The notes under the pieces are model-generated. The model was not told where the DNA came from. It saw only the letters and a program-made list of their open reading frames with translations, and made no database searches. This document shows, piece after piece, positions 4,112 through 64,000 of a stretch of DNA of 64,000 bases; positions within the stretch are counted from its first letter, which is position 1; every line of letters starts with the position of its first letter. The DNA is from Pseudomonadota bacterium (GTDB taxonomy: Bacteria; Pseudomonadota; Gammaproteobacteria; UBA12402), in the NCBI GenBank assembly GCA_039190005.1, contig JBCCYM010000001.1, forward strand, positions 36,024 to 100,023. The letters run 5' to 3'. The position numbers were made by a program, and so were the translations under genes.

Positions 4112-4340
4112 TGCGATTCCTTCGACCCTTCGACCCTTCGACAGGCTCAGGGCAAGCAGGCCCAGTGTATAAGATGGCTGAGCTTGTCGAAGCCAAGGAA
4201 TGCGCTCGAAAAGCTTGTTATGCCCTTCGGCCCCGACCCTTCGACCCTTCGACGAGCTCAGGGCAAGCAAGCTCAGGGCAAGCAAGTTCAGGGACCACCC
4301 TTCGGCAGGCTCAGGGACCACGAGATCAGGGATTACCGCG
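4112..4340. repeat. Dispersed modular intergenic repeat, copy 1 (modules CGACCCTTCGACAGGCTCAGGGCAAGCAGG + GTGTATAAGATGGCTGAGCTTGTCGAAGCCAAGG)
   Basis: Direct sub-repeats (cgacccttcga x2, gctcagggcaagcaag x2). Homologous to copies at 6880-7006 (inverted), 15112-15425, 60251-60273 and 61093-61205. Lies between convergent genes. Confidence 0.8.
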
Positions 4341-6879: not shown

Positions 6880-7006
6880 TGGTTCCTGAGCCTGCCGAAG
6901 GGTCGAAGGGCATCATAAGTTTTTTGAGTGTGAGCTTTGGCTTCGACAAGCTCAGCCATCTTATACACAGCCTGCTTGCCCTGAGCCTGTCGAAGGGTCG
7001 AAGGAT
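6880..7006. repeat. Dispersed modular intergenic repeat, copy 2 (inverted relative to copy 1)
   Basis: cctgagcctgccgaagggtcgaaggg ... cttcgacaagctcagccatcttatacac ... ccctgagcctgtcgaagggtcgaagg is the reverse complement of the copy-1 modules. Confidence 0.8.
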
Positions 7007-36400: not shown

Positions 36401-38804
36401 TTGCACATATTTTATTGGTCTGAGTATTTTTATTAATATAAATGTATTCAGAATCATGCGAAAAGCGATTTAATGCATAAAAAGCTAAATAATCATCACC
36501 TAAAGATGAAGCATCATAATAATTACCTTGTGGTTTTGGTTTGCCACCTTCACCTGTTCCTACGCTCCAAGTTGTTTCATTAAGGTTCGTGTCCCAAATA
36601 ATAAGATTTCCTGATGATTGCAAATAAAATACATTAGTAGATTCACCATCATTACCATTTGACCAAACGGCTTTTCCTGAGCTGTTATACACTACCAAAC
36701 TTCCATTACTATGAAACATTAGTTTGACACCACCTTTGTTTGCAATATTAGCAGACCAAATTACTGTCCCATAATTAGAAGATTCACCAGTATGGTTATA
36801 TAACACCAGATTCTCATCACTTTCCTGTAAAATCAACAGGTAGGAATTGCCATTAGTAGTGTTTTTGGTCAAGATACTTTGACCAGAGGTTAGCACTGTA
36901 CTATTAGGCTTAAACTCTAGCGAACCATCGCCAGGTGCCTGATAAGAAAATGCCGGTACAGCAATACCATAACCTGACAATGTCGTTGTTATTGGTGTGC
37001 CGTATTTACTCTCATTAGAATTTTGAATTTGTTGACGCAATACACACAAATTTCCTTTGGAGTCTGAACAGTAAAAACGAAATAATCGCTGTATGCCAGT
37101 ATTAGAAAAATAACGCCCATATTTACTGCAACCACCATATAAGGTACTTTTTTTAAGTGGATTATCTTCATTTACCTCAACAGGAAAAGCAAAATCTTGT
37201 TTAGCAATATACCATCCGCCATCAATCTTACCTTGTGAATTAGTATTGGTAAGAATAGCTAATATACCACTGTGTAAAACAGTCATTAATGCAACTTTAC
37301 CTGCGTCACTACTAATTTGATATACTTTCACTAAATCAGCAATCGCATTATTAATTTGAACATAGTTCGTAATATTACTGCTGTTAATATGTAAAGTTTG
37401 CTTTCCATTTAAATAGTAAGCGACGCCTTGTGATGACGTTTTTTTTGAGACAGTATTACTAGAAATAGTCAACTTACCTGAGCGCTTGCTGTTGTTACAA
37501 ATAACAGCTAAATCCAGTGCCACACTTTGAAAAGGCTGCGAGCTAGTGAGATCAAATCCACTTATATTTAATAAATTAATACCCGAAGTGTAGGTCGCCG
37601 TATCAGTGGCATAAATAACTTCAATGGGTACAATATGAACACTACCTTGTAAGTCGGTATAAATTAAAAAATGCGGAGCAAGAGGGGTATTACCATTTTG
37701 GGTCTTAACAGAACAATTTATAAGGAACAATCCTTGCCCATTGATATCGTAATAGGTTCTTACATCGATTTTTAAGTTAGGTTGATTAGATATTTGTTGA
37801 GCAAATATATCATAAAGGGGTAAAATTTTCCAATCGCCTATGGTGGATTGCTTCTCAGCTGATAAAGAATCCTGTAATTCCAGTGATACCTCGGCACTAC
37901 AGGTCTTCACTAATAGGTAATACTGCTTCGATGATGCGCCAGCAACAAAAACTGACCAAGCACCATAGATGGATAATCCAGTGTCATTATTACTATCAGA
38001 CTGAACTTGATTGGTTTGCGAATGAGTAATGGCTTCTATACAGGGGACATTCGTGTCTTGGAAAGTCAGGCCATATTTAAACGTATAACCATTACTCGCA
38101 TTAATCAATAACTCTTGGAAACCTTGCGTTACTGAATCACCTTTCTCTGCTCGAGAAGTTTGTTGTTGGTGACGAAAATAAGTCAAACCATTTAAATCCG
38201 ACTGATCATTCGGATTCAACTGCATAAAATGAGAAAACTGGATAAATTCAATCGGACCATAGTGATAGCCAATATCAGCAAAAGTATTTTCCAAAGGTGT
38301 ACTATCCTCCTCATCAACACCAATCAACTGACTTTGTATCTTAGGTAGTGGTTGAAATCCTTCTAACACCGCGTGCAAATTTTGGTAATTGCCACTCGTT
38401 TCTACTGGGCCAGTAATCGCCGGCACAGCATTGTGAGTGACATCACGAAACAGTTCACCATTAAGTGTTAAGCCACCAGGCGTTTGCAAGCTAGCCATGC
38501 TTTGAGCGGTCAAACCCACCTCTTTAGGATCCACATGCAACGCTTTATCCACCTGTCCCCAAGCAGTGGGGATTAATCCGCTTTTTACCAAACCGGCAAA
38601 CAGACCAACTTTGGCGGAGCCTTTTAAAAACTGACGTCGAGAGACTAATAAATCGAAGGCTTTTAATTCTTTTTCGCGAATGTTGTCATCTTCGATGACA
38701 TGTTTGAGCCGTTGGGATAATTTTTCACGCACCTGTTTGAATGAACGGATTTTTTTCTTTTTTTGTTGGTAAGCGTTCGATTTTGATTTTTTATCAGATA
38801 CCAT
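33447..38804 (-). CDS. Giant (1785 aa) Tat-signal secreted protein with two bulb-type (B-) lectin domains and a hydrophobic helical C-terminal region
   Basis: Strong RBS (AAAGGGGGACTC-ATG). Twin-arginine motif SRRQFLKGSAKVGLFAGL after a 54-aa basic n-region. Two MMBL lectin domains with Q-x-D-x-N-x-V-x-Y repeats (QESDENLVLYN / HSNGSLVVYN / QSSGNLIIWD and QADGNLVLRD / QASDDGGLAIRD). A long S/T/N/Q-rich linker. A C-terminal region of about 550 aa rich in amphipathic/hydrophobic helices. Starts 18 nt after tatC. Confidence 0.75.
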   Translation of the reverse strand: MVSDKKSKSNAYQQKKKKIRSFKQVREKLSQRLKHVIEDDNIREKELKAFDLLVSRRQFLKGSAKVGLFAGLVKSGLIPTAWGQVDKALHVDPKEVGLTAQSMASLQTPGGLTLNGELFRDVTHNAVPAITGPVETSGNYQNLHAVLEGFQPLPKIQSQLIGVDEEDSTPLENTFADIGYHYGPIEFIQFSHFMQLNPNDQSDLNGLTYFRHQQQTSRAEKGDSVTQGFQELLINASNGYTFKYGLTFQDTNVPCIEAITHSQTNQVQSDSNNDTGLSIYGAWSVFVAGASSKQYYLLVKTCSAEVSLELQDSLSAEKQSTIGDWKILPLYDIFAQQISNQPNLKIDVRTYYDINGQGLFLINCSVKTQNGNTPLAPHFLIYTDLQGSVHIVPIEVIYATDTATYTSGINLLNISGFDLTSSQPFQSVALDLAVICNNSKRSGKLTISSNTVSKKTSSQGVAYYLNGKQTLHINSSNITNYVQINNAIADLVKVYQISSDAGKVALMTVLHSGILAILTNTNSQGKIDGGWYIAKQDFAFPVEVNEDNPLKKSTLYGGCSKYGRYFSNTGIQRLFRFYCSDSKGNLCVLRQQIQNSNESKYGTPITTTLSGYGIAVPAFSYQAPGDGSLEFKPNSTVLTSGQSILTKNTTNGNSYLLILQESDENLVLYNHTGESSNYGTVIWSANIANKGGVKLMFHSNGSLVVYNSSGKAVWSNGNDGESTNVFYLQSSGNLIIWDTNLNETTWSVGTGEGGKPKPQGNYYDASSLGDDYLAFYALNRFSHDSEYIYINKNTQTNKICASICYNKMMESSWQEEQFVIQMDGFENARCFSGSSPDNSTEQLLLSDGKSIIVPGENDTYYRLLIITSESDTSNLGKLVWQKKVGSSDWTNVWDSKTSTCSSSTDALARKLYFQADGNLVLRDDDGTDIWTPSDDDSSFTPSPNSLFYLQASDDGGLAIRDKTNTVIWSSQTNVSNVVVADECFYHTEITPTNVYGNPVQLSSTQLIEIRSATALKILCDHTRSYHLINRTTSALLPVNQYSGKLVLRVPARGRLHCSLFLRIIDVKQFLINKAEQAFLQKFNSSAADDDSTTNNGAVTQWAVSPLSLGAQQRSTYQDSSGTFTYTNTSAVHQQGFNYNSKYVNTNDTSNPSAGDTAMSRFIRNAATKTQEQPTQFDIQGVNNATTSNSIDPLNYAASLIPAKPTTTKYPDGFNPYENYTWSFDPSQKQITTMLSSNQSTQMSNQLLGSTGCGLFHRLGDLIHKISHSVAPEILHFMLSDSLEIPGLQSCPFLEHAIDFCLKAVLLIVFPEILIVVEVLLLIELAQFFVDIAEVANQMKPIFKSYFTTSAIQNGLVNEADVVASGITSIQSKFDNSVQSLINNLEKTTSPPASVNLFNGNGFLSHMVSFLFHLVNKILSLIEKLVAEGLNATFDVPTSVTTAMTNISDDITNTLTQESENIVNTLVNTIINIPNFPDILISVFQGMQNSVDIILSNSADAVRQFGTIAADELSSFISNVLELPALLAVLPIPLVLTFEFIKKVTNGKVDLLPKGPPVIDLASFLAATFYCVAYLIENGKCTNQCTLPNYSNDQLSSSKKTSSLAQSGSACNDDIMIELIIYGCRTIENTTWAFRKSYKILAVLRIMIKWVRVTVEFIQTYENLNLNSLLYDYSLFLHWSDVMNKTIRIFATMDDLETTLSFLQQWNICRESIQIVLNIISFCNKSNPSVSDLLFTMAKITGQFTSYTPFISDAEDPEVASDYLLSLIVIIWTCFGTGALLEQSES

Positions 38805-50565: not shown

Positions 50566-51960
50566 ATGCGTAGGATCACAAAAAAATTAATTATTGTGGT
50601 AGGTACTTTGTTTGCAATTGCTAATGCTTCTAATGTGTTGGCAGAATATTATCCCTATACTACATATTTTGCTGTCGCTTGTGTTGCTGACTATGAAACA
50701 GTAGACACCTATGACGATAAAAATAATTATATAGCTGCTGCAGCTGCTTGTGAAGGTGGTGCTTCTACAGAAAGTCAAGACCAAGCAAATCAAAATGCCA
50801 TTAATAATGCAAACGCAAGTTGTGATACACTAATGGCTAAAAATAGTACAGGATATTTATCGGGTTGTGACCTTTCTCTGGATAGCTACGTGCATATTAC
50901 AATTGACGCTTACAATAATGATACATGTGTAGGTGCAGGTGCAGCTGTAGAAGATAATACAGGCACTACAGTAGTAGCTAAAGGGAACTTCGATGATGTT
51001 GATTCAACTATTGGTGATTCCATCAATGAATATAAACAACATCAATATGTCGAAATTATTTGTCCTCATACTACTAATGCTAATACTACCCCTATTTATT
51101 TTGCTATCGCTTGTGTTGCTGAATATACAAGTGAGGGTAAGGATGGGATGGGTGTTGCAGCGGTTTGTGAAGGTGGTGCTTCTACAGAAAGTCAAGACCA
51201 AGCAAATCAGAATGCACTTAATAATGCAAATGCGAGTTGTGATAAGCTAATTTCTCAAGGTACTGGTGGAGAGACACAGAGTTGTGGCCTGAATTCGAAG
51301 AACTATACCTATATTACTGCTGATGCTTACAATAATAATATATGTGTAGGTGCAGGCGCAGCTTTCGAAGAAGAAGGCAATAAAGGTGCCGCAGTCGTGG
51401 CCAAAGGAAGCTTATCTGATATTAGTTCAACTATTAATAATGGCCTTGGTGGTATAAATACACTCCATCAAGATGTGGAAGTTATTTGTCCCCACAATAA
51501 TACGGCAACAACAACTTATAACATGTCAAAAAATTTAAGTAAGTCATATACATTCTCGCATGATGTCAAAGGCAAAGATATAGTCTCGCTTAATGTCTAT
51601 CCGACAATGCAAAACACCTCGCTTTATATATCAGCAGGCGATGCGGCAACTAAAGATGTTGATGTTGTTGTAAGTAGTGTGATGACTGCTTATGTAGATA
51701 CTGATAAAAGCACTTGTTTAGCCAATATGCGTAAAGAGAAGAATGGTGATCTTATCGGCCATCCTGATAAATTACCTTGTACACTTGAACTAAAACCAAA
51801 AAATATTACTTCGAGTGATGTGGGTTATATTACGGTTAATCCATCAGTAAAGGGTAATGCGACACACTGGAATACAGAAAGTCGAATATTGCCGGTGAAT
51901 TTGTACAGTAATTATAACGATTATTTATTGTATCACGCTAATGAATCTGAATCGAAATAA
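50566..51960 (+). CDS. Secreted protein with a large internal tandem duplication (two ~140-aa Cys-containing repeats)
   Basis: Signal peptide. Repeats YFAVACVADYE...AAACEGGASTESQDQANQNAINNANASCD...DAYNNDTCVGAGAA...VEIICPH and YFAIACVAEYT...AAVCEGGASTESQDQANQNALNNANASCD...DAYNNNICVGAGAA...VEVICPH are near-identical at nucleotide level. Confidence 0.6.
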   Translation: MRRITKKLIIVVGTLFAIANASNVLAEYYPYTTYFAVACVADYETVDTYDDKNNYIAAAAACEGGASTESQDQANQNAINNANASCDTLMAKNSTGYLSGCDLSLDSYVHITIDAYNNDTCVGAGAAVEDNTGTTVVAKGNFDDVDSTIGDSINEYKQHQYVEIICPHTTNANTTPIYFAIACVAEYTSEGKDGMGVAAVCEGGASTESQDQANQNALNNANASCDKLISQGTGGETQSCGLNSKNYTYITADAYNNNICVGAGAAFEEEGNKGAAVVAKGSLSDISSTINNGLGGINTLHQDVEVICPHNNTATTTYNMSKNLSKSYTFSHDVKGKDIVSLNVYPTMQNTSLYISAGDAATKDVDVVVSSVMTAYVDTDKSTCLANMRKEKNGDLIGHPDKLPCTLELKPKNITSSDVGYITVNPSVKGNATHWNTESRILPVNLYSNYNDYLLYHANESESK

Positions 51961-52399: not shown

Positions 52400-53821
52400 A
52401 TGAACAAGAAATTATTTTTAGTGTCAACAACTTTTGTTACGCTTATGCTGAGTTCTGGTGCATATGCACAAGATAGTTTGTTTCTTCCTAAAGATGGGTT
52501 TAGTGATTTGCAAAGTGTTAAAGCAACCGTCGATTTGAGCCCAGATATTATGCACCCGGGCAAGGTGGGACGTTTGACAGTTAAACTACCTACCAATGCT
52601 AGCGAAGACAGAACTTTTACATTTACAACTGATTCTAATTTACATTTTTTCCCTCATAATTCTTGTACAATTTCTACTGGTGATAAAACGTGTAGCGTAT
52701 TTGTATCTGCGGGGTTTAAGAATATTGTTGGCGAGCATACGATTAAAGTTACCACAGCTGAAGGTTCAATCACAAACCCTGAGCTTAAACTTACTGTTAA
52801 TGCAAATGTGGCTACGAAACTTTATTTAGGTAGCATTGACCAGAACACTTCACCTATCTTGGAGTGTAATATATCAGATAACGGTCCACAACTTAGTTCA
52901 TGTAACGCATTGGACCTCAGTTCTATAGTAGGAAATAATAATCAAACGGCACTAACAGGTGGAGCTCTTCTTACTGCTTCGAACGAAACGACGTATCTTT
53001 ATCTTTCTGGAGTAAGTGGGGAAAATGGGCGTCAAATGGTGAGATGCCAAATCACAGCACATGGTGTAACTGCTGATACATGTAAAATATTAAACATAAC
53101 GGATGTGGATAAGCCTATGCACATAGCGTTTAATACATTTACAACAAGTAGTAGTTCAACTACATATGCCTATATTTCTAATGATAGCAAATACATATAC
53201 CAATGTACTGTAGATGAACAAGGTGAAATAAATAACTGTACGATCCAAGCTGATGGTGAATTTGTAAATGCAGCTGGCCTTGATACAAAAACACTTGCCG
53301 GTACTACATATATTTATGTAGGTAATGGTAGTAATAGTGTCAATTATATTACTAGATGTACTTTAAACAGTGGAACTGGCGAATTGAGTGATTGTACTCA
53401 TCTTGATGGCGGCGGTAAAATTTTTATAAGTCCTGGACATCTTACAGTAAATCATATTTCTGAAAACCTTTACGTTGCAAATGTTGATGAGCAAAACGCA
53501 GGAAATAATAATATAGTAGCTTGTAGTCTCAATAATAATGGAGAGCTAACTGATTGTACAGTTGTAAGCGGTTTAGCTGTTGTTTATCCGGGTAATATCG
53601 TGCCAACTAATGTTAATATCGACGGAAATGATTCTGTATTTTTGTACGTGGGTAATCAGTCATCTCAAAAATCATCAGCGGACATGGGAACTATTAGAGG
53701 TTGTCAGTTGTTGAGTGATAAATTACTATCTTGTAATAGTTATGGTGATACTGTAGATATAAAAATTAGCGATCTTGACAGTAGTTTTACAGGTGGCGTT
53801 GATGGTATAATAGCGTATTAA
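52400..53821 (+). CDS. Secreted protein with iterated Cys-bracketed repeats (beta-propeller-like)
   Basis: Signal peptide MNKKLFLVSTTFVTLMLSSGAYAQ. About 7 iterations of a [YLYV/YIYV]-x-N...C-x-[LI]-x(3-5)-G-x-[LI]-x-[DS]-C-[TN/K] pattern (LSSCN, TADTCK, INNCT, LSDCT, LTDCT, LLSCN). Confidence 0.55.
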   Translation: MNKKLFLVSTTFVTLMLSSGAYAQDSLFLPKDGFSDLQSVKATVDLSPDIMHPGKVGRLTVKLPTNASEDRTFTFTTDSNLHFFPHNSCTISTGDKTCSVFVSAGFKNIVGEHTIKVTTAEGSITNPELKLTVNANVATKLYLGSIDQNTSPILECNISDNGPQLSSCNALDLSSIVGNNNQTALTGGALLTASNETTYLYLSGVSGENGRQMVRCQITAHGVTADTCKILNITDVDKPMHIAFNTFTTSSSSTTYAYISNDSKYIYQCTVDEQGEINNCTIQADGEFVNAAGLDTKTLAGTTYIYVGNGSNSVNYITRCTLNSGTGELSDCTHLDGGGKIFISPGHLTVNHISENLYVANVDEQNAGNNNIVACSLNNNGELTDCTVVSGLAVVYPGNIVPTNVNIDGNDSVFLYVGNQSSQKSSADMGTIRGCQLLSDKLLSCNSYGDTVDIKISDLDSSFTGGVDGIIAY

Positions 53822-53894: not shown

Positions 53895-54932
53895 TCAATA
53901 CTGCCGACTCATTTCTTCCACAGAAAAAACACGCTTGATTTTCGACGCTTGACCGGCTGAGCCGAAAGCTTCAAAGCGGGCTTTGCAGATTTCTTTCATC
54001 GCTTCTTTGGCGGCACCAAGGTATTTGCGTGGATCGAATTCTTTTGGATGCTCAGCAAAGTAACGACGCGTCGCGCCTGTCGCGGCTAAACGCAGATCCG
54101 TATCAATATTCACTTTACGCACACCGTGTTTAATGCCTTCTTGGATTTCTTCAACCGGTACACCATAGGTTTCACCAATGGCGCCACCATATTGATCGAC
54201 TATTTTTAACCAATCTTGTGGCACCGAAGAAGAGCCGTGCATGACTAAATGGGTATTGGGAATTTTTGCATGTATGGCTTTGATGCGATCAATTGCCAGA
54301 ATGTCACCAGTAGGTGGACGGGTAAATTTATAGGCGCCGTGACTGGTGCCGATGGCAATGGCTAAGGCGTCCACTTGCGTTTGTTCAACAAAATCATGCG
54401 CTTGTTGCGGATCAGTCAATAATTGTTCACGATCAAGCTCACCCTCAGCGCCTGAGCCGTCTTCTTTGCCCGCTTTCATTGTTTCCAAAGAACCTAAACA
54501 GCCTAACTCACCTTCTACCGATACGCCACAAGCATGGGCCATACGCACCGCGAGCGCGGTGGTTTCAGCATTGTATTCATAACTTGCCGGTGTTTTAGCG
54601 TCTTCATGTAAGGAGCCATCCATCATCACCGATGTAAACCCTAATTGTATCGAGCGCTGACAAATTGCTGGCGAAGCGCCGTGATCTTGATGCATACAGA
54701 TGGGAATATGTGGCCATTCCGTGCTGGCGGCGACAATTAAATGTTTGATAAACGCTGAGCCGGCATATTTTCGCGCGCCGGCTGACGCTTGAATAATTAC
54801 CGGGCTATCCACTTCATCGGCCGCTTCCATAATGGCGCGTACTTGTTCTAAATTATTCGCGTTAAACGCGGGCATACCAAAATGTTGCTCGGCGGCATGA
54901 TCTAACAATTGTCTTAATGTAATTAAAGCCAT
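53895..54932 (-). CDS. fba: Class II fructose-bisphosphate aldolase
   Basis: Conserved Zn/active-site regions ([25 protein letters not shown]). 345 aa. Confidence 0.92.
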
Positions 54933-54949
54933 TTCAATTCCTCACTTAG

Positions 54950-56422
54950 TTATGATTGATTTTCATCTTGACCAACACGATAAATTTTAACCAAATTCGT
55001 TGTGCCAGCCCCTTGATCGCCTTTGGTAATTAACACTAAATCACCATGGTGTAAAATATCGCGATCCGTCAGTATTCGGACCGCTTCTTTGTTGATGTGA
55101 TCGCGAGATACCGCGTTCATATCAAAATAAAATGGATACACGCCGCGATAAAGACAAACGCGCCGCGCGGTTTCTTCATGATGCGTTAGGGCGAAAATCG
55201 GTGTGCCACTGCGGATGCGTGACATCCACAACGGCGTTGAGCCGGTTTCAGTCAAGGAGACAATGGCTTTAATATCGAGATGGTTGGCAATATAGACAGC
55301 CGACATGGCAATGGCTTCATCAATGCGGTTGAAATGCGCGTCCATCCGGTGGGTTGATATTTTTGTTTCCGGCTGTTTTTCTGTGCCTAAACAGATGTCC
55401 GACATCGCTTTTACCACTAAAGCCGGGTGTTTGCCAGTCGCTGTTTCCGCGGAGAGCATGACCGCGTCGGTCGCGTCAAGCACGGCATTGGCGACATCAA
55501 ACACTTCAGCCCGTGTTGGAATAGTGTTTTCTATCATGGTTTCCATCATTTGCGTGGCCGTAATCACGGGTTTATTCAGCAAGCGTGCCTGGTGAATAAT
55601 CCGCTTTTGTACCGCCGGTAATTCAGTGTCGCCAATTTCAACCCCTAAATCACCGCGCGCTACCATGACCGCGTCGGATACCTCAATAATTTCATCAATA
55701 ACCGGCACGGCTTCCGCGCGTTCAATTTTGGCAATGACACCGGCTTTACCGCCAGCTTCTTTGATCAGCTGTTTAGCGTATGTCATATCTTCAGCGCTGC
55801 GCGGAAAGGAAATAGCAATGTAATCAACATGTAAGGCAACCGCGGTTTTTAAATCTGTTTTATCTTTTTCAGTCAGCGCTTCGGCGGTTAAACCACCACC
55901 TTGGCGGTTGATGCCTTTATGGTCGGAAAGTTTGCCGCCGACAATGACAGTGCAGATAATTTCACTGTCTTTAACTGCTGTTACTTTAAACACAAGACGA
56001 CCATCATCCAGCAACAAGGTGTCACCAGTACGAACATCATCAATGAGTTTTTTATAGGTAATGCCCACCCGTTGTTGATCGCCGGCATGATCATCGAGCT
56101 TGGCGTCGAGAATAAATTCCGCGCCTACTTCGAGATGAATGGTGCCATCTTTAAACGCGGCGATACGGATTTTGGGACCTTGTAGATCAGCAAAAACAGC
56201 CACATGGCGATTCAGTTTCTTGGCAATTTCTCTAACAGCTTCAATGCGTTTTTGATGATCTTCAGCCGTGCCATGCGAGAAATTGGCGCGAAATACATTG
56301 GCACCAGCGGCAATGGTTTTCTCAAGTACGCCAGGGTCATCCAAAGATGGTCCCATGGTCACCACAATTTTGGTGCGGCGCCAGGTATTGGTTGTCATAT
56401 TGGTATTTGCCATTTCAGTCAT
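54950..56422 (-). CDS. pyk: Pyruvate kinase
   Basis: RRTKIVVTMGPS, FRANFSHG, MVARGDLGVEI. Start trimmed to MTEMANT to avoid overlap with pgk. Confidence 0.9.
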   Translation of the reverse strand: MTEMANTNMTTNTWRRTKIVVTMGPSLDDPGVLEKTIAAGANVFRANFSHGTAEDHQKRIEAVREIAKKLNRHVAVFADLQGPKIRIAAFKDGTIHLEVGAEFILDAKLDDHAGDQQRVGITYKKLIDDVRTGDTLLLDDGRLVFKVTAVKDSEIICTVIVGGKLSDHKGINRQGGGLTAEALTEKDKTDLKTAVALHVDYIAISFPRSAEDMTYAKQLIKEAGGKAGVIAKIERAEAVPVIDEIIEVSDAVMVARGDLGVEIGDTELPAVQKRIIHQARLLNKPVITATQMMETMIENTIPTRAEVFDVANAVLDATDAVMLSAETATGKHPALVVKAMSDICLGTEKQPETKISTHRMDAHFNRIDEAIAMSAVYIANHLDIKAIVSLTETGSTPLWMSRIRSGTPIFALTHHEETARRVCLYRGVYPFYFDMNAVSRDHINKEAVRILTDRDILHHGDLVLITKGDQGAGTTNLVKIYRVGQDENQS

Positions 56423-56435
56423 GGTGTTCTGCCTC

Positions 56436-57614
56436 TTAGTTTGCTTGTTTTTGTTGCAATGCTTCGATGGCTGGTAATGTTTCACCTTGTAGACAAGCTA
56501 AAAACGCGCCACCACCGGTTGAAATATAAGATACTTTATCAGCGATATTATATTTTTCAATGGCCGCTAGTGTATCACCGCCACCGGCGATTGAAAAGGC
56601 TTTGCTTTCGGCAATGGCCGCGGCAATGGCTTTGGTGCCGCCGCCGAATTGATCGATTTCAAAAACACCTACCGGTCCATTCCATAAAATAGTACCAGCG
56701 TTTTTAATGATTTTGGCAAATTCTTTTCGTGTTTTCTCACCGATGTCTAATATTTTTTCATCATCGGCAATATTGCTGATAGGTTGATCGTAAGCTTCAG
56801 CATTGGCTGAGCAGTCTCTGGCGACGATCACGTCACTCGGCAGTGGAATAGATTTGCCGGTTTGTTTTGCCAGGGCGACCAGGCGCTCCGCTTCGTCAAT
56901 AAAATCTTCTTCACAAAGTGAGCCACCAACATGATGACCTTCAGCTAAGATAAACGTATTGGCAATACCACCGCCGACAATCAGGGTATCCACTTTTTCA
57001 ATTAATGCATTCAGCACTTTTAATTTTGTCGATACTTTTGAGCCAGCAACAATTGCGACGACAGGTTTTTTAGGTGATTTAAGCGCTTTATCAATCGCGG
57101 TGATTTCCCGTTCTAAAAGTGGACCGGCACAAGCTTGAGGCGCGAATTGAGCGACACCATAAGTGGATGCTTCTTTACGATGCGCTGTCGCGAAAGCGTC
57201 CATCACATAAACATCACAAAGCGCGGCCATTTTTTTGGCGAGCGCTTCATCATTTGCTTTTTCGCCGACATTAAAACGCACATTTTCGCACAGCACCACA
57301 TCACCCTCATCAACGGTGACACCATCAAGCCAATTTTCAATTAAGGGAACGTCTTTACCCAGTAATTCAGACAGCCGTTTGGCCACCGGCGCCAGCGAAA
57401 AATCCTCATTATAATCGCCTTCCTGTGGTCGCCCCAAATGTGACATAATCATGACCTTGGCTTTGGCTGACAGTAATGTCTTAATGGTTGGTAGTGCTGC
57501 TTGAATACGGGTATCACTGGTGATTACCCCTTTTTTCATGGGTACATTCAAGTCCTCGCGTATCAGCACGCGTTTTCCTTTAAGATTCAGTTCATTCATT
57601 GTCATAATCTTCAT
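56436..57614 (-). CDS. pgk: Phosphoglycerate kinase
   Basis: N-terminal [13 protein letters not shown] and the hinge/ATP-binding motifs. 392 aa. Confidence 0.92.
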
Positions 57615-57635
57615 AAGTTAACCCCCTAAATATAG

Positions 57636-58940
57636 TCATTTTCGATCAGTATTGTTACGATAACTCGGTTGATATTGGAGTGCAAGAAAAAACCACACCA
57701 CCAGCATCATAATGCCACTGATCGCCAGCGGCATCACAATATCATAACTGGCAACAATACTGCCGATAATCGAAATTGGAATACTGGCAAAAGCATATAT
57801 CGAGGCTAAAATGCCAAATACATGCCCTTCATTAGCGGGTGTTGTCTCGTTGGCAACTACAGCATTAAAACAGGGCATAAAAATAATAATAGCTAGCATA
57901 TAGACAAGTCGGAATAGATACACTTGCCACTCGGTTCTTGATAAGCCCAGTAATAATAAAAATATTGCCGCGACTATCAAACTTGGTTTAATGAGGCGTT
58001 CCGCGCGTATTGAACTGACTAATGGAAAAACCACAGTAATTTGCAATACCGCGTACATAATCCCTACAACAACGTATAAATGACCAATTTGTACTTCAGA
58101 AAAATTGACACTCCCTCTTAGGAAAGCGTTAAAAAACTGTATATAAAAAGCAAAACCAATGGAGAAGAGTGCCCACATTAAAAATAAAAAACGCACCTCA
58201 GCCATATAAAAAGCCTGTATGATATTATTAATACCTATCATCCAAGTCAGTTTATTTTCTTGACGCGTCTGATTCATATTGCGTTGAAAGCGATAGGTTT
58301 GTAACTGCGTTTCAGAAACTGTCTCGCGGAAAAGCGCCATCAATAGTATGACAATAATAAGATTGACAATGGATAAAATATAAAAAGGGGTGCTATATGA
58401 AAACCAGCCCACCAGTTTGGCATCGATGAGATGAGAACCGAGCATGGGGCCGATAATTGAACCAGCACCAATGCCGATTTCCAATAAATTAAAGTGAACG
58501 GTTCTCGATTTATTTTGACTAATATCGGCAAAACTAGCTTGCGCAATCGATAGATTGGCGGCAAATAAACCGGTGATCAAGCGGCTGATAAATAGCAGGG
58601 CTAAAGAGCCAGCGTTAATCGCGACACCGCTCAAAAAAATGCCGCAAAATGTGCCGGAAGTGGTAATAATTAAGCCTTTGCGTCGTCCCCACTGATCAGA
58701 AAATTTACCGAGAACAGGTGCGGCAAGAAATTGTCCGGCATAGGTTATAGCAAACAACAAACCTAGTATAATAAAACGTTCGTGGCGGTTATAGATGCTG
58801 ATAAAACTGTGCTTTGAGTCGACAAACAAAAACAGAATAGAGGTATAAACCACACCTATCGCTGAGTAATCGAGCGTTACAACGGCTACTAACAGTAATT
58901 TGTTAACAAAATAATTTTTTGCTTGCGCCGGTGATTTCAC
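57636..58940 (-). CDS. MFS transporter inserted within the glycolytic gene cluster
   Basis: 12 TM. MFS signature GKFSDQWGRRKG between TM2 and TM3. Confidence 0.75.
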   Translation of the reverse strand: MKSPAQAKNYFVNKLLLVAVVTLDYSAIGVVYTSILFLFVDSKHSFISIYNRHERFIILGLLFAITYAGQFLAAPVLGKFSDQWGRRKGLIITTSGTFCGIFLSGVAINAGSLALLFISRLITGLFAANLSIAQASFADISQNKSRTVHFNLLEIGIGAGSIIGPMLGSHLIDAKLVGWFSYSTPFYILSIVNLIIVILLMALFRETVSETQLQTYRFQRNMNQTRQENKLTWMIGINNIIQAFYMAEVRFLFLMWALFSIGFAFYIQFFNAFLRGSVNFSEVQIGHLYVVVGIMYAVLQITVVFPLVSSIRAERLIKPSLIVAAIFLLLLGLSRTEWQVYLFRLVYMLAIIIFMPCFNAVVANETTPANEGHVFGILASIYAFASIPISIIGSIVASYDIVMPLAISGIMMLVVWFFLALQYQPSYRNNTDRK

Positions 58941-59012
58941 TTCGCTGTGCCTGTGTAATCAATGCTGGTAAAGGTAAACACGCATCACGGTCGACAATAA
59001 CTTATACACTAA

Positions 59013-60020
59013 TTAGCTTGCCGACATCATTGCCAAACCAACATCAATCATGCGATTAGAAAAACCCCACTCATTATCATACCAAGACGATACTTTAACC
59101 ATGTTATCAATTACCCGTGTTAATTGACTGTCAACGGTTGAGGACATCGGCACATGATTAAAATCTATGGATACTAAGGCTTCATCAGTAAATCCTAATA
59201 CCCCTTTTAATTCATCATCAGCCGCGGCTTTTAAAATGCTGTTAACTTCTTCTACTGAAGTAGGACGAGCCGCTTCAAACGTTAAATCGACAAATGACAC
59301 ATTGGCGGTTGGTACGCGCACGGCAAAGCCATCTAAACGACCATTGAGCTCTGGTAAAACCAAACCGACCGCGGCGGCGGCACCGGTTTTGGTTGGAATC
59401 ATTGAGAGGCCAGCGGCACGCGCGCGACGAATATCTTTGTGAGGCGCGTCTTGGGTATTTTGATCATTGGTGTAAGCGTGAATTGTTGTCATCAGGCCTT
59501 TAACAATACCAAGTTTGTCCTGTAAAGGTTTTGCCAATGGCGCTAAACAGTTTGTCGTACAGGAAGCGTTGGAGACAATATTATCTGAGGCTTTGAGAAT
59601 GTGATGATTAACACCATATACCACCGTGGCATCAACATTTTTACCCGGCGCGGAAATAAGCACTTTTTTAGCGCCGGCATCCAAGTGTGCTGCCGCGTTG
59701 TGACCATCGGTGAAATGTCCGGTGCATTCATAAACCACATCAACGCCCATTTCTTGCCAAGGTAGATTTTTAGGATCACGTTCGCAGAGTACTCGAATCA
59801 AATCACCATTGATCAATAAACCATCATTTGTTGTTTCAACCTCGCCATGAAAGCGTCCATGAATTGAATCATATTGGAACAAATGCGCCAGTGTTTGCAC
59901 ATCAGTCATATCATTAACAGCAACAATTTCCATTTCTGAATGTCGATTGTATTCATATAAGGCTCTCAACACATTACGACCAATGCGACCAAAACCGTTA
60001 ATTGCTACTTTAATTGTCAT
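59013..60020 (-). CDS. gap: Glyceraldehyde-3-phosphate dehydrogenase
   Basis: [15 protein letters not shown]ossmann start with AGGAG RBS 8 nt upstream. SCTTNC active site. The track ORF is a spurious upstream extension. Confidence 0.92.
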
Positions 60021-60250
60021 TTGATTTTCTCCTGTTGTTTTAAATTTTACACTATTATAATCATGATACCATAAATAAATCAATGTTATAAATAAAAGAA
60101 CAAGATTTGCTTTAATATTTCACTCGCAAGCTTCAACAAAGAGGAAAATGTATGTCTGGTTTGATGAATAACTGGGGAATCATCCTGAGTTATATAGCAC
60201 TTTCCTAAGCTGTTGATACATTAATGACATCATAATTATTGTCCTTCGCG

Positions 60251-60273
60251 TGTTCCTGAGCTTGTCGAAAGGT
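60251..60273. repeat. Solo unit of the TCCTGAGC(C/T)TGTCGAA(A/G)GG repeat
   Basis: tgttcctgagcttgtcgaaaggt lies immediately 3' of the SDR gene. Confidence 0.6.
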
Positions 60274-60274
60274 A

Positions 60275-61069
60275 TTACTGTTTCTTCACATAATGACGCA
60301 AAATACGATACATCAATTGTGGAAATAATGCCTGCAAGCAGGACACCCATTTTAATTTTGCTGGAATAAAAAGATTTTGCCGTGAACTACCTAAGGCGGC
60401 AACAATTTTCTTGGCCACAGTGGCGGCATCCGATGTTGCTGGGCTGGGTTTAACAACAGCTGTTTTTTTATGGCTGCTGCCTAATGAGTTTTTTCGCAAA
60501 TGAGTGCCGCTCATCCAGCCCGGGAAAACCTGTAGCACGTTGATTTCTGGGACATCCAATCGCAAGGTATTGAAAAATCCCGTAGCCGCGTGTTTGCTGG
60601 CAACATAAGCGCTATGATTCGGTACGGCAATAAGCCCCTGAATTGAAGAGATTAATACGACCTGACCTTGAGATTTTTTTAGATACGCAAGCGCGTTGAG
60701 TGTGCAGTGGACTGGCGCGAAATAGTTGATTTGCATCAGTTCGTTAATCATTTGTTCATCAATGGTTTCGACATTCTGCCACATGCTCACGCCAGCATTG
60801 TTGATAAGCATGTCAATTTTACCGAATTGTTCAACGGCTGTGTTAATGAGCGTCGCGCAATGTTGGGATTGTTTCAAGTCACCAACATGGACGTGGATTT
60901 TTGATAAGCTGCTATGGCACTGCTCAACAGTTTGTCGCAGGCGTTCGGCATCACGACCATGGAGCAGTAATTTAACCGGATAACGGCTGAGTTTAATGGC
61001 TAATTCACGCCCTAAACCACTGGAAGCGCCAGTAATAATGATGACTTTGTCGTTTAAATGTTTATTCAT
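60275..61069 (-). CDS. Classical short-chain dehydrogenase/reductase (candidate acyl/alkyl-DHAP reductase)
   Basis: TGASSGLGRELA cofactor motif. NNAG. Catalytic Y-x3-K (YVASK). 264 aa. Flanked by CCTGAGCCTGTCGAAGGG repeat units on both sides. Confidence 0.75.
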   Translation of the reverse strand: MNKHLNDKVIIITGASSGLGRELAIKLSRYPVKLLLHGRDAERLRQTVEQCHSSLSKIHVHVGDLKQSQHCATLINTAVEQFGKIDMLINNAGVSMWQNVETIDEQMINELMQINYFAPVHCTLNALAYLKKSQGQVVLISSIQGLIAVPNHSAYVASKHAATGFFNTLRLDVPEINVLQVFPGWMSGTHLRKNSLGSSHKKTAVVKPSPATSDAATVAKKIVAALGSSRQNLFIPAKLKWVSCLQALFPQLMYRILRHYVKKQ

Positions 61070-61092
61070 ACCGATTGTGTTTCAAGATAGTA

Positions 61093-61205
61093 CCCTGAGC
61101 CTGTTGAAGGGCGGTTCCTGAGATCGTCGAAGGGTGGTTCCTGAGCCTGTCGAAGGACGGTCCCTGAGTTTATCGAAGGGTAGTCCCTGAGCTTGTCGAA
61201 GGGTT
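61093..61205. repeat. Five tandem ~21-bp units of the CCTGAGCCTGTCGAAGGGNGG repeat
   Basis: ccctgagcctgttgaagggcgg / ttcctgagatcgtcgaagggtgg / ttcctgagcctgtcgaaggacgg / tccctgagtttatcgaagggtag / tccctgagcttgtcgaagggtt. Confidence 0.85.
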
Positions 61206-61226
61206 TATTATTTATCATAATTATTA

Positions 61227-62924
61227 TTATAATTTAGTATAGTTATCATGCTGCGAGCGAATGTATTTGCCCGGATTCATGATATTATTGGGATCAAGTT
61301 TTTGTTTTAAGGTATCAACGATATCAACACCGGTATTGCCGATGTCATCGGCAATCCACGGTGCATGCTCATAACCAACAGCATGATGATGTGATAAGGT
61401 CGCACCACCGTCAATGAAAGACTGTTCAGCTGCTTGTTTGACCTGCCAGTATTGTTCGATAACTTTGTCTTGATGTTTAGGTAAAAAACCAAAGGTAAAA
61501 TATAAACTGGCACCGCTGTGATAACTGTGACTCAGATGACAACCAACCCAAGGTTCGCAGTCCAATTTTTGAATCGCTTGACGGATATTATCCATGGTTT
61601 GATGATAAAGCGGTAAAACATTATTCCATACGGTTGCGGTTTCGCTGACATCGACGACGATGCCGTAATCCATTAAATGGTCGCGCGTGTAAGGAAAGTC
61701 GTATTTGCTTTTAGCAAAAGAACGTCCCGGCGAGGCACCGAGCGCTATGGCGTGATGCTGTTTAAATAGCTTTGCGACCTTGTTATATTGTCGAGCAAAG
61801 GTTTTTTTATCCTGGGCTTCACAGCCGATGAGCATTAAACAGCATGTGTCGAGATCTATTTTTTTTATTTTTTTCAAATACCATTTTGTCACGCGCGACA
61901 GTAAACGCTGCGTAAATTTGCCACGTTTTTTAAACACAAACGAAAGTTGTGTTTTTTTAGCGTCGCTAAGACGCATCATGGTGGGTTTAACGCCTTTTTT
62001 TATCACGTGATTAACGGCTTCTACGCCGGAAGTGAAATCATGAAACAGAAAGCCGTAGTAAGCTTTATATTTCGGCAGAGGGTGTACCATCATGGTAATC
62101 TCAGTGATAATACCCAATACGCCTTCTGAACCGATACACAGTTGTTTAATATCAATGCCATTTGATGCTTTTGGAACTTCACGGGTGATAATTTCGCCAC
62201 TGGGGGTAATCATAGTGAGCGCGAACACCATGTCTTCAATTTTGCCGTAATGATCAGAGAGCATCCCGGCAGAGCGGGTAGCTACCCAGCCACCGAGACT
62301 GGAATATTCAAATGAATCAGGGAAGTGTCCCAGTGTGACATGTTCAGCGTTTAGTTTTTTTTCTAAGGCCGGACCGAGAATGCCGGCGCCGATTTTGGCC
62401 GTCATATTGTCGTGATTGACGATGACTTCATCAATCGCGCGCAAACTGACCACCACAATCATCCGCTGTTCTGATGCCAGTGATTCAACACCGCCAACAA
62501 TATTGGTGCCGCCACCGAATGGAATAATGACCACATTGTGTTGATGTGCTAAGCGGAGTATGTTGCTGACATCTTGATTGGAATAAGGATAAACAACGCA
62601 GTCCGGCGCGCGTTTGATATCGCTGTTACGGATGCGCCAGAGATCGCGAAAACTTTTACCATACGTATGTGCTAAACGTGTCTGGTCATCGCTTTTAATC
62701 TGTTCCGCTTGCAGTGTTTCGGTCAAACTGTTGATAAAAGCGGCATTTTCTTTGGCTTTAGGCAAGATAATGGTTTCTTTATTAACAACCCTGATTTTTT
62801 CCGGCAATTCCTTTAGTTTAATTTCTTTCATCAGGTACGGCCATAATGCCGGCCGGCTGTCAATATCAAATTCGATATTGGCATCACCCCAGCCCCACCA
62901 TTTCATGGATTTAATTGTTTTCAT
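61227..62924 (-). CDS. FAD-linked oxidase of the alkyl-dihydroxyacetonephosphate synthase (AGPS) type
   Basis: N-terminal MKWWGWGD... resembles the AGPS-specific LKWNGWGY box. It is followed by an FAD-binding PCMH domain (VVYPYSNQDVSNILRLAHQHNVVIIPFGGGTNIVGGV). The whole sequence is collinear with eukaryotic and myxobacterial AGPS. 565 aa. Confidence 0.7.
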   Translation of the reverse strand: MKTIKSMKWWGWGDANIEFDIDSRPALWPYLMKEIKLKELPEKIRVVNKETIILPKAKENAAFINSLTETLQAEQIKSDDQTRLAHTYGKSFRDLWRIRNSDIKRAPDCVVYPYSNQDVSNILRLAHQHNVVIIPFGGGTNIVGGVESLASEQRMIVVVSLRAIDEVIVNHDNMTAKIGAGILGPALEKKLNAEHVTLGHFPDSFEYSSLGGWVATRSAGMLSDHYGKIEDMVFALTMITPSGEIITREVPKASNGIDIKQLCIGSEGVLGIITEITMMVHPLPKYKAYYGFLFHDFTSGVEAVNHVIKKGVKPTMMRLSDAKKTQLSFVFKKRGKFTQRLLSRVTKWYLKKIKKIDLDTCCLMLIGCEAQDKKTFARQYNKVAKLFKQHHAIALGASPGRSFAKSKYDFPYTRDHLMDYGIVVDVSETATVWNNVLPLYHQTMDNIRQAIQKLDCEPWVGCHLSHSYHSGASLYFTFGFLPKHQDKVIEQYWQVKQAAEQSFIDGGATLSHHHAVGYEHAPWIADDIGNTGVDIVDTLKQKLDPNNIMNPGKYIRSQHDNYTKL

Positions 62925-63561
62925 GGTCGTTCTCTTTTAAATCAATCACCAGTTGTTGCAGTTGCCGTGATAATTCAGTAATTTGCTTTGAACTGTTATG
63001 CTTGTCAAGTGTAATCGTCAGTGGTTGACCGAACTTGACAGTAATGGGTGTTGGTCTGGGCCAGAGCTTACCCTTAGGAAGGCTGTCAAATGTGCCGTTG
63101 ATATAAGCGGGCACAATTGGAATATTTAACTTATGGGCTAACCAAATCGAACCACGTTTAAATGATCCGACTTTGCCGGTTTTTGTGCGCGTGCCTTCCG
63201 GGTACATAATAAATGTCGTTGGGTGTTTAGCGGATATTTTTTTGCATTGTTTCATCACATTTTTCATTTCTGATAACTTGGCTTCGCGACTGACACGTAC
63301 AAGACACATCAGTGACTGTAGCAGCAATGATTTAAACCAATGGTTAAAAAAATAATCCTGGGCGGCCAACATGGCAAAACGATGCAAGGAGAGCCCACTG
63401 GCTATCACCAGTGCCGCGGTATCGGCATGACTTGAGTGGTTACTGCAGATTAAAAAACTGCCTTCAGGCAGGTGGTGCTTGCCATAAGCTTTAAGCGGGC
63501 AATAAAAGCGAAAAAAAAAGCGACAAAAATACCAAAACAGGTGCCGGGTTATTCGGTACAT
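62911..63561 (-). CDS. Lysophospholipid/glycerol-phosphate acyltransferase family protein (LPLAT; candidate DHAP acyltransferase)
   Basis: HxxxxD motif NHSSHADT and motif III FPEGTRTKTG. 216 aa. Overlaps the AGPS-like gene by 14 nt (translational coupling). Confidence 0.75.
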   Translation of the reverse strand: MYRITRHLFWYFCRFFFRFYCPLKAYGKHHLPEGSFLICSNHSSHADTAALVIASGLSLHRFAMLAAQDYFFNHWFKSLLLQSLMCLVRVSREAKLSEMKNVMKQCKKISAKHPTTFIMYPEGTRTKTGKVGSFKRGSIWLAHKLNIPIVPAYINGTFDSLPKGKLWPRPTPITVKFGQPLTITLDKHNSSKQITELSRQLQQLVIDLKENDHENN

Positions 63562-64000
63562 TATTTACGCCCATATTGCTTATGTGCTTCAGTAAATTCG
63601 TTGCTAGCTACAGCGGCACCAAGTGAAATTTCCAAAGCTAAGACACAGCCAGCAAGAATTTGGCAGAATTTTTTAGTCGAATGTTCACCGGTACAGCCGA
63701 GCATGTCCAGATGATGACGCTGTTGTTTAAGACGTGTGGCGCCGCCAACTGTCCCGACAGTTAGAGAGGGCAAGGTGGCGGTGACAACTAAGTCATCGCC
63801 GGTAATTTCATAGCGTATAATACTGTTTGAGTTTTCTGTCGCGCAAGCGGCGTCTTGTCCGGTAGCGAGATAGATCGCGGTTAGCGCGTTGGCAGTATGC
63901 ATATTAGAACCACTAACACCCGCCAGCAGCGACGCGTCTTGTTTAACATAATAAGCGGAGGTTATTTCCTGTTTGCTAACATGCATAACTCGTTTGAGTA
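63561..64000 (-). CDS. HMG-CoA reductase, C-terminal part (gene continues beyond window end)
   Basis: ALTAIYLATGQDAACATENS and ATLPSLTVGTVGG regions match the HMGR catalytic domain. The stop overlaps the start of the acyltransferase by 1 nt. Confidence 0.7.
   Translation of the reverse strand, partial: LKRVMHVSKQEITSAYYVKQDASLLAGVSGSNMHTANALTAIYLATGQDAACATENSNSIIRYEITGDDLVVTATLPSLTVGTVGGATRLKQQRHHLDMLGCTGEHSTKKFCQILAGCVLALEISLGAAVASNEFTEAHKQYGRK

Follow-up and report, generated by a model that had tools for sequence, protein, structure and literature searches.

A compact four-gene cassette in a gammaproteobacterial genome, proposed to encode an AGPS-dependent route to ether-lipid precursors with an HMG-CoA reductase-like protein as the likely fatty alcohol supplier

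A stretch of 64,000 nucleotides from a gammaproteobacterial metagenome-assembled genome (MAG; GCA_039190005.1, contig JBCCYM010000001.1, positions 36,024 to 100,023) was analysed and is referred to below as the window. According to the listing of open reading frames (ORFs), four minus-strand genes occupy positions 60275-64000: the 3' part of a gene of the 3-hydroxy-3-methylglutaryl-CoA (HMG-CoA) reductase (HMGR) family, an acyltransferase, a homologue of alkyl-dihydroxyacetone phosphate synthase (alkyl-DHAP synthase; AGPS) and a short-chain dehydrogenase/reductase (SDR). We propose, with a probability of roughly 0.75, that these genes form an operon-like cassette whose products would together suffice to convert acyl-CoA and DHAP into 1-O-alkyl-sn-glycerol-3-phosphate (1-alkyl-G3P), the precursor of ether (plasmanyl) phospholipids. 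In this route, the HMGR-family protein, read as the fatty acyl-CoA reductase FcrA, would use NADPH to convert a long-chain acyl-CoA to a fatty alcohol, and the PlsC-like acyltransferase would join DHAP and acyl-CoA to give 1-acyl-DHAP. The AGPS homologue would then swap the acyl group of acyl-DHAP for the fatty alcohol, forming the ether bond of 1-O-alkyl-DHAP and releasing a fatty acid, and the SDR would reduce the keto group of alkyl-DHAP to yield 1-alkyl-G3P, to be processed onward by general phospholipid enzymes. The family membership of the proteins, the conservation of their active sites and their compact, conserved linkage are established.

The AGPS homologue was compared with all PDB sequences, among which AGPS of Dictyostelium (2uuu) scored 418 bits (E = 5e-124) and AGPS of guinea pig (4bby) 269 bits, whereas the best matches outside AGPS (LctD, D-lactate dehydrogenase, glycolate oxidase and D-2-hydroxyglutarate dehydrogenase) reached at most 97 bits and covered the FAD domain only. 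The NCBIfam model for GlcD gave 161 bits against a cut-off of 568. Residues R318, Y475 and H512-514 align with R419, Y578 and H615-617 of the guinea-pig enzyme, and all five are invariant among 14 bacterial homologues (alignment A1). We take Arg419, Tyr578 and the His615-His617 loop to be the active site of guinea-pig AGPS, presumably with the roles given by Nenci et al. 2012. Because of these scores and the residue conservation, the protein neither groups with GlcD or the lactate dehydrogenases nor lacks the active site; judged by sequence comparison it is an AGPS homologue, as the first-pass annotation of this DNA had claimed when it called for a comparison with those two families. The same annotation had regarded AGPS as rare in bacteria, which is not so: an AGPS alignment scan of one genome per bacterial species found relatives in the genomes of at least 556 species, the homologue is matched by more than 7800 protein clusters, and published MAG surveys report AGPS homologues as common in bacteria (PMC11868695). 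The window's own species is not represented in the species-representative genomes; the best match there is 53% identical, among the matches listed. A recent transfer of the gene from an amoeba was rejected, as bacterial homologues score 650-680 bits against 418 for Dictyostelium and the GC content is like that of the rest of the window.

Only a C-terminal fragment of the HMGR-family gene lies in the window, its match to HMG-CoA_red (PF00368) spanning profile positions 225-368. The full gene, seen in a second assembly of the same sequence (L001, 8204-9364; protein P0121), encodes a class I protein of 386 aa. A GH15 glucoamylase gene precedes it there, and since a gap of 121 nt separates that gene from its start, the HMGR-family gene is read as the first of the unit. 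The protein did not score as a canonical HMGR: the NADPH-HMGR equivalog model TIGR00533 gave 248.8 bits against a cut-off of 441.8, and the HMGR-like proteins of all loci first inspected scored 249-271 bits. It was aligned with 164 relatives and with the HMGR sequences of human, Arabidopsis and an archaeon, taken from PDB alignments. The catalytic residues E559, K691, D767 and H866 are kept in the window protein and invariant in all 164 relatives, and R590 is likewise conserved in the window protein. At the HMG-binding positions, Ser684, Lys692 and Leu862 of canonical HMGR, the window protein has Glu, Asn and Phe; these residues recur in 164, 161 and 163 of the 164 relatives, respectively, with Ser684 shared by the human, Arabidopsis and archaeal enzymes and Lys692 and Leu862 by true HMGRs. 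A large clade of 'class-I HMGR' homologues has been described as fatty acyl-CoA reductases, named FcrA (Grossi et al. 2025, ISME J, PMC11948995). Their hallmarks are retention of Glu559, Lys691, Asp767 and His866, replacement of Ser684 by Glu, a bulky residue in place of Leu862 and loss of the carboxylate-binding Lys735 (printed as Lys795) to a small residue (PMC11948995). FcrA of Ca. Promineifilum breve uses NADPH to turn acyl-CoA of C14 or longer into the alcohol; it leaves HMG-CoA unreduced and is insensitive to simvastatin (PMC11948995). The changes S684 to E, K692 to N and L862 to F thus alter the HMG pocket as in FcrA, and the HMGR-family gene is most likely of FcrA type and would supply the fatty alcohol to AGPS, the fourth required activity.

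The acyltransferase matches PF01553 (E = 1.4e-19) and has the motifs HSSHAD (HX4D) and PEGTR; its only solved relative is PlsC of Thermotoga maritima (5kym). Over 204 aa, its whole length in the alignment, it is 38.7% identical to the acyltransferase domain (residues 503-706) of a protein from a Coxiellaceae MAG (L024) in which a fatty acyl-CoA reductase (FAR) is fused to an acyltransferase, and would on this comparison be an orthologue-type match to the acyltransferase domain of an AGPS-partnered FAR-acyltransferase fusion. A function as DHAP acyltransferase is suggested by its constant position upstream of AGPS. The SDR matches adh_short in Pfam (E = 1e-47 to 7e-47) and the NCBIfam model PRK06181 (241 bits, cut-off 215), and carries the motifs TGASSGLG (TGxxxGxG), NNAG and YxxxK. 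Its PDB matches are generic (3-hydroxyacyl-CoA dehydrogenase, 3-hydroxybutyrate dehydrogenase and 11beta-HSD1, ~84-95 bits each), and an assignment through solved structures was dropped as unspecific. Its identity with the SDRs encoded behind AGPS in other cassettes is 36-41%, with 41% for that of the FAR-type Coxiellaceae locus L024. We propose it as the acyl/alkyl-DHAP reductase that would form 1-alkyl-G3P, on the strength of its position after AGPS in both FcrA- and FAR-type cassettes. Across the four proteins, the predicted substrates are best founded for AGPS, then for FcrA, and come from context for the acyltransferase and the SDR.

The first two junctions of the run are overlaps, read directly from the sequence: 1 nt (TAATG) between the stop of the HMGR-family gene and the start of the acyltransferase gene, and 14 nt (ATGAAAACAATTAA) between the acyltransferase and AGPS genes. 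Both had been described in the first-pass annotation together with the four-gene arrangement and are borne out by the ORF listing, as are the motifs it cited (HxxxxD for the acyltransferase, MKWWGWGD for the AGPS homologue) by the protein sequences. An alternative AGPS start at M7 would fall 4 nt past the acyltransferase stop. A spacer of 157 nt, implicit in the first-pass annotation, separates AGPS from the SDR gene. Scans of the window for promoters and terminators gave signal at background level, and an Rfam scan of the window returned no match.

Table 1 Coordinates of the cassette genes and the associated repeats in the window
Feature	Position	Strand	Remarks
fcrA candidate, 3' part of HMGR-family gene (C-terminal ~146 aa)	63561-64000	-	PF00368; start beyond window end
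Acyltransferase (AT), PlsC/LPLAT type, 216 aa, proposed DHAP acyltransferase giving 1-acyl-DHAP	62911-63561	-	PF01553
AGPS (alkyl-DHAP synthase) homologue, FAD-dependent, 565 aa	61227-62924	-	FAD_binding_4 (PF01565) and FAD-oxidase_C (PF02913)
23-nt tandem repeat array, 4.9 copies, in AGPS-SDR spacer	61093-61204	no strand	Insertion, outside the pathway
Classical SDR, 264 aa, proposed acyl/alkyl-DHAP reductase	60275-61069	-	adh_short (PF00106)
Sites of the repeat family	61093-61204, 60252-60271, 4135-4318, 6882-6996, 15120-15414		

An HMG-CoA_red gene accompanied an acyltransferase and AGPS in all of the loci examined first, in the orders HMGR-AT-AGPS-SDR (window, L005), desaturase-like-AT-AGPS-HMGR (L002, L003) and AT-AGPS-HMGR (L004). 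The survey was extended to the best 80 AGPS loci among the at least 556 species-representative genomes, in which six-frame ORFs were searched with profiles built from the window proteins and the first matches. The order FcrA-AT-AGPS-SDR, with genes abutting or overlapping, was found in 37 of the 80 loci, and FcrA-AT-AGPS in a further three; one Legionellales MAG had AT-AGPS-FcrA. The remainder comprised AT-AGPS only (25 loci, mostly Acidobacteriota), AGPS alone (11) and other arrangements (three; AT-AGPS-SDR, AT-SDR-AGPS and AGPS-SDR). In 67 of the 80, the gene next upstream of AGPS encodes an acyltransferase. With the same order in 37 of the 80 closest AGPS loci, the four-gene linkage is far beyond chance, and the locus survey upholds the earlier idea that acyltransferase, AGPS and SDR are a conserved unit mapping onto the acyl-DHAP, alkyl-DHAP and 1-alkyl-G3P steps. 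Complete cassettes occur in at least six phylum-level groups, among Planctomycetota, Verrucomicrobiota, Ignavibacteria, Bacteroidota, Gemmatimonadales, Caldithrix and sponge-associated lineages. Across loci, the four proteins have correlated pairwise identities (Spearman 0.52-0.79), as expected if the cassette moves or descends as a unit, a signal that a common species phylogeny yields as well. A divergent second AGPS subgroup in metagenome loci (L097-L112 and L116; profile score ~350 vs ~900) has the order FcrA-AT-AGPS-SDR, and the cassette therefore spans deep AGPS diversity.

For the reciprocal test, metagenome contigs were scanned with the HMGR-like alignment and a threshold of 450 bits on the cassette FcrA profile was applied. 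Twenty-nine HMGR-like matches reached it (40-48% identical to the window's protein); an acyltransferase gene came next in 27 of the 27 cases where the contig continues, and AGPS followed in all 25 whose contigs reach that far. A further 51 distant matches (L117-L167; 36-42% identity) were never AGPS-linked. These mostly have Trp862, typically carry ~120 extra N-terminal residues, include two proteins of ~1000 aa, and look like the published wax-ester-type FcrA with an N-terminal lipid-carrier domain. Glu684 is present in 28 of the 29 linked and 48 of the 51 unlinked proteins, and position 862 is F or W in every metagenome relative with a residue in that column. The short FcrA subgroup, the window protein included, appears to be dedicated to the AGPS cassette.

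The strongest argument for FcrA as the source of the alcohol comes from two loci of Coxiellaceae MAGs (L024, L019), which keep the acyltransferase, AGPS and SDR, lack FcrA and have a classical FAR (PF07993) instead. FAR and FcrA catalyse one and the same reaction, in which four electrons reduce a thioester to an alcohol. Since the two are mutually exclusive beside the same partners, FcrA would supply the alcohol for AGPS. In L024 the FAR domain (PF07993, 'male sterility') is part of a 708-aa fusion with the acyltransferase, and in L019 a separate FAR gene lies immediately upstream of the acyltransferase gene. The fused architecture, FARAT, is known from Myxococcus and most eukaryotes (bioRxiv 10.1101/2025.10.10.681575). 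No FAR was found in the window by tblastn with two Coxiellaceae FAR queries.

Several points weigh against the proposed pathway. The acyltransferase and the SDR are generic by sequence, with substrates assigned from context only, and a literature search found neither lipid data nor enzyme assays for the cassette in any organism; the search for lipid data on cultured carriers of the cassette yielded nothing useful. The reading of the HMGR-family protein as most likely FcrA draws on residue signature, score and synteny, and characterised FcrAs carry an N-terminal lipid-carrier domain that the window protein lacks. Its residue at the K735 position depends on the alignment, being K, V (pairwise to 6hr7) or a gap, and this column is unconserved in the 164-relative alignment (K 72, C 43, L 17, I 10, A 9, M 6). 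Co-transcription of the SDR gene with AGPS is not certain, as the 157-nt repeat array parts them. Finally, the set is not obligate, for Acidobacteriota have AT-AGPS or AGPS alone with neither FcrA nor SDR nearby.

Among other explanations, the gene at the window's end could be a genuine mevalonate-pathway HMGR that stands beside a three-gene ether-lipid module by chance, or through a coupling in which isoprenoid alcohols would serve AGPS. PF00368 and the public annotations do say HMG-CoA reductase, and conservation extends to the catalytic residues, to R590 and possibly to K735. The first-pass annotation, which had rightly recognised a fragment of an HMGR-family protein, took it for an oddly linked mevalonate or isoprenoid gene; that part is not sustained by the FcrA signature and its constant membership of the cassette. 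The mevalonate link was rejected on the signature residues, the sub-threshold HMGR score (249 bits vs the 442-bit equivalog cut-off) and synteny: the three substitutions are those of FcrA, a non-reducer of HMG-CoA (PMC11948995), the gene accompanies AT-AGPS across phyla and in several gene orders, and FAR takes the equivalent place in the Coxiellaceae relatives. No mevalonate gene was found in the rest of the 64-kb window or the 8 kb beyond it (72 kb in all), and we consider a mevalonate role hardly credible. Every source name of the proteins P0121-P0240 in the NCBI and JGI records reads 'hydroxymethylglutaryl-CoA reductase (NADPH)', and on cassette proteins this label looks like a systematic mis-annotation.

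It is also very unlikely that FcrA and the acyltransferase serve neutral lipids, such as wax esters or alkyl-acyl-glycerol storage lipids, rather than membrane ether phospholipids, with the AGPS link being secondary. The experimentally shown role of FcrA is indeed the supply of fatty alcohol for wax esters, in haloarchaea (PMC11948995), but the short FcrA subclade is AT-AGPS-linked wherever the contig reaches, and the PlsC-type acyltransferase is a relative of the acyltransferase domain in the AGPS-adjacent FAR-AT fusion. No WS/DGAT (wax synthase) was found in the window or in the 8 kb past its end, and the wax-ester role was set aside. Unlikely as well, in our view, is an ether product other than a bulk membrane lipid, or the use of non-standard substrates: a signalling or host-directed alkyl-lipid, acyl-ACP as donor, or another keto-phosphate acceptor. 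Sequence leaves the substrates of the acyltransferase and SDR undefined, extra genes in some relatives (desaturase-like, cyclic-nucleotide-binding/Rce1-like and a second acyltransferase) suggest downstream tailoring, and ether lipids of the host are important to Legionella vacuoles (PMC12042894). Against this stand the AGPS active site, fully conserved with respect to DHAP-using enzymes, and the simplicity of the canonical pathway, which uses each gene once.

The proposed route to 1-alkyl-G3P is partly anticipated in print, as the cassette is a variant of the Myxococcus AGPS operon; the suggestion that such a route would be wholly uncharacterised has to be withdrawn. The nearest system described is that of Myxococcus xanthus, where MXAN_1674-1676 form an AGPS operon with an acyltransferase and a gene of the NAD-dependent reductase family (bioRxiv 10.1101/2025.10.10.681575); genetic evidence ties Myxococcus AGPS to the formation of ether lipids (Lorenzen et al. 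2014, as cited in bioRxiv 10.1101/2025.10.10.681575). Likened by description, both systems combine AGPS with a PlsC/GNPAT-type acyltransferase, an alcohol-forming reductase and an NAD(P)-dependent reductase, following eukaryotic peroxisomal logic. They differ in that the Myxococcus FAR (PF07993) is fused to the acyltransferase, whereas the window has a separate FcrA and a 216-aa acyltransferase with PF01553 only, and in that the Myxococcus operon has an extended SDR (epimerase/dehydratase) where the window has a classical adh_short SDR. For the HMGR-family protein of the window the nearest described enzyme is FcrA (PMC11948995), with which it shares the HMGR fold, the Glu/Lys/Asp/His set, the Ser684 to Glu change and a bulky aromatic residue at position 862. 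Unlike published FcrA, which has a Lad lipid-carrier domain and Trp862, it is a protein of 386 aa with Phe862 and no Lad, and belongs to a subgroup joined to AT-AGPS(-SDR). Grossi et al. suggest that some FcrAs feed ether-lipid synthesis, and point to Coxiella burnetii, where fcrA has a PlsC-like neighbour, and to Ca. Promineifilum, where AGPS is nine genes away; neither the tight four-gene cassette nor the short FcrA subgroup is described there (PMC11948995). We found no paper describing the compact four-gene cassette, the short FcrA subgroup or the FAR/FcrA exchange in a literature search of incomplete coverage, and no FcrA follow-up papers beyond Grossi et al. 2025.

The eukaryotic peroxisomal pathway (FAR1/2, GNPAT, AGPS and DHRS7B/PexRAP) comprises the same four activities, with AGPS homologous; the window differs in having clustered genes, FcrA for FAR, a minimal 216-aa PlsC-like acyltransferase and no context of peroxisomal targeting. 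Nor did the window yield a desaturase of the PEDS1/CarF type. ElbD and the elb genes of myxobacteria, and PlsA/PlsR or Ger of anaerobes, share the product class (alkyl/alkenyl glycerolipids) and use unrelated enzymes: elb works without AGPS, and PlsAR and Ger reduce an existing ester bond. None of the elb, PlsA/PlsR or Ger genes was seen in the window.

If the proposed pathway is correct, the HMG-CoA reductase label wrongly suggests mevalonate metabolism in bacteria that are probably without it, and the cassette gives FcrA a second role, genomically much better defined than that in wax-ester formation. Four compact genes would make bacterial AGPS-dependent ether-lipid synthesis testable, a route for which a single Myxococcus mutant is the present basis. 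Which organisms make bacterial alkyl glycerol ethers has long been uncertain in geochemistry, and a marker of four linked genes would be more specific for them than agps homology alone. In a wider proposition to which we give even odds, the short FcrA without a carrier domain would be the dedicated alcohol supplier of FcrA-AT-AGPS-SDR cassettes spread over Planctomycetota, Verrucomicrobiota, Ignavibacteria/Bacteroidota, Gemmatimonadales, Caldithrix and some Gammaproteobacteria. These would be a major oxygen-independent, AGPS-based source of environmental non-isoprenoid alkyl glycerol ethers, with FAR and an HMGR derivative having come to occupy the reductase slot independently of each other. 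A free-standing gammaproteobacterial MAG making its own ether lipids would also be of interest given that Legionella depends on host GNPAT/AGPS (PMC12042894). The affiliation of the window as 'Legionellales-like' in the first-pass annotation was not confirmed: the best named matches of MnmE are from Oceanospirillales and Vibrio (60-65% identity) and resolve only to Gammaproteobacteria, and the NCBI label is only 'Pseudomonadota bacterium'.

A 23-nt repeat, in 4.9 tandem copies, fills the spacer between AGPS and the SDR gene, and a further copy lies right behind the SDR stop. Because the SDR gene abuts AGPS in other cassettes (the 37 complete cassettes of the genome scan have a median stop-to-stop distance of 801 nt, roughly the length of an SDR gene), the repeat-filled spacer is regarded as an insertion. 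A terminator scan found no terminator-like site within it. Matches to the repeat family (20-23 nt, core CCTTCGACAAGCTCAGGRAC or its complement) number 12 in the window, where chance would give 0, and all of them are intergenic. The same core occurs in an 85-nt tandem repeat of 2.7 copies at 15156-15384.

Additional genes accompany the cassette in some relatives. A second and distinct PlsC-like acyltransferase follows the SDR as a fifth gene in L020 (10540-11208) and also in L007, L011, L021, L033, L037, L039, L043, L046, L051 and L061, loci labelled Verrucomicrobiota or relatives; this non-cassette acyltransferase is ~29% identical to that of the window and could plausibly acylate 1-alkyl-G3P at the sn-2 position. 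Directly upstream of the acyltransferase, L002 (2787-3674) and L003 (209-1096) encode a desaturase-like membrane protein (PF00487 in the record), and the same protein is encoded (71% identical to that of L002) on the opposite strand ~3 kb upstream of the acyltransferase in L019 (125-1006). A role in these three loci as tailoring desaturase on the ether lipid would be speculative. No copy of this cluster-type gene was found in the window by tblastn. The window does encode a desaturase at 3090-4076 (PF00487, with a weak DesA-like match), which the first-pass annotation had imagined acting on the lipids; it was rejected as a member of the system, lying 57 kb from the cassette and having no significant pairwise similarity to the desaturase-like gene of the L002 and L019 clusters. 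Beside the AGPS cassettes of L002 (55-1224; a metagenome contig of unknown taxon) and of the two Coxiellaceae MAGs, L019 (1049-2212) and L024 (6743-7963), a gene recurs whose product joins a cyclic-nucleotide-binding domain to an Rce1-like (CPBP) membrane protease domain; no copy of it was found in the window.

Immediately downstream of the cassette, on the same strand, come gapA, an MFS transporter gene, pgk, pyk and class-II fba (53895-60083). DHAP, the product of fba, is the proposed acceptor substrate; the adjacency is probably coincidental, the flanks differing in the relatives' loci inspected. The other window genes that were scanned are mostly housekeeping genes (glyS, glmU/S, ddl, ftsQAZ, lpxC, secA, mrp, tatC, topA, yidC and mnmE). 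The ddl ORF (11723-14137; 804 aa) contains two D-Ala-D-Ala ligase stretches, and a gene of the TraT family of complement-resistance lipoproteins (14304-15056) lies between ddl and ftsQ in the cell-division cluster. A 1785-aa protein encoded at 33447-38804 has B_lectin as its only Pfam match, and two adjacent genes at 50566-51960 and 52400-53821 encode proteins of ~470 aa with no Pfam match, in a stretch of lower GC content (0.36).

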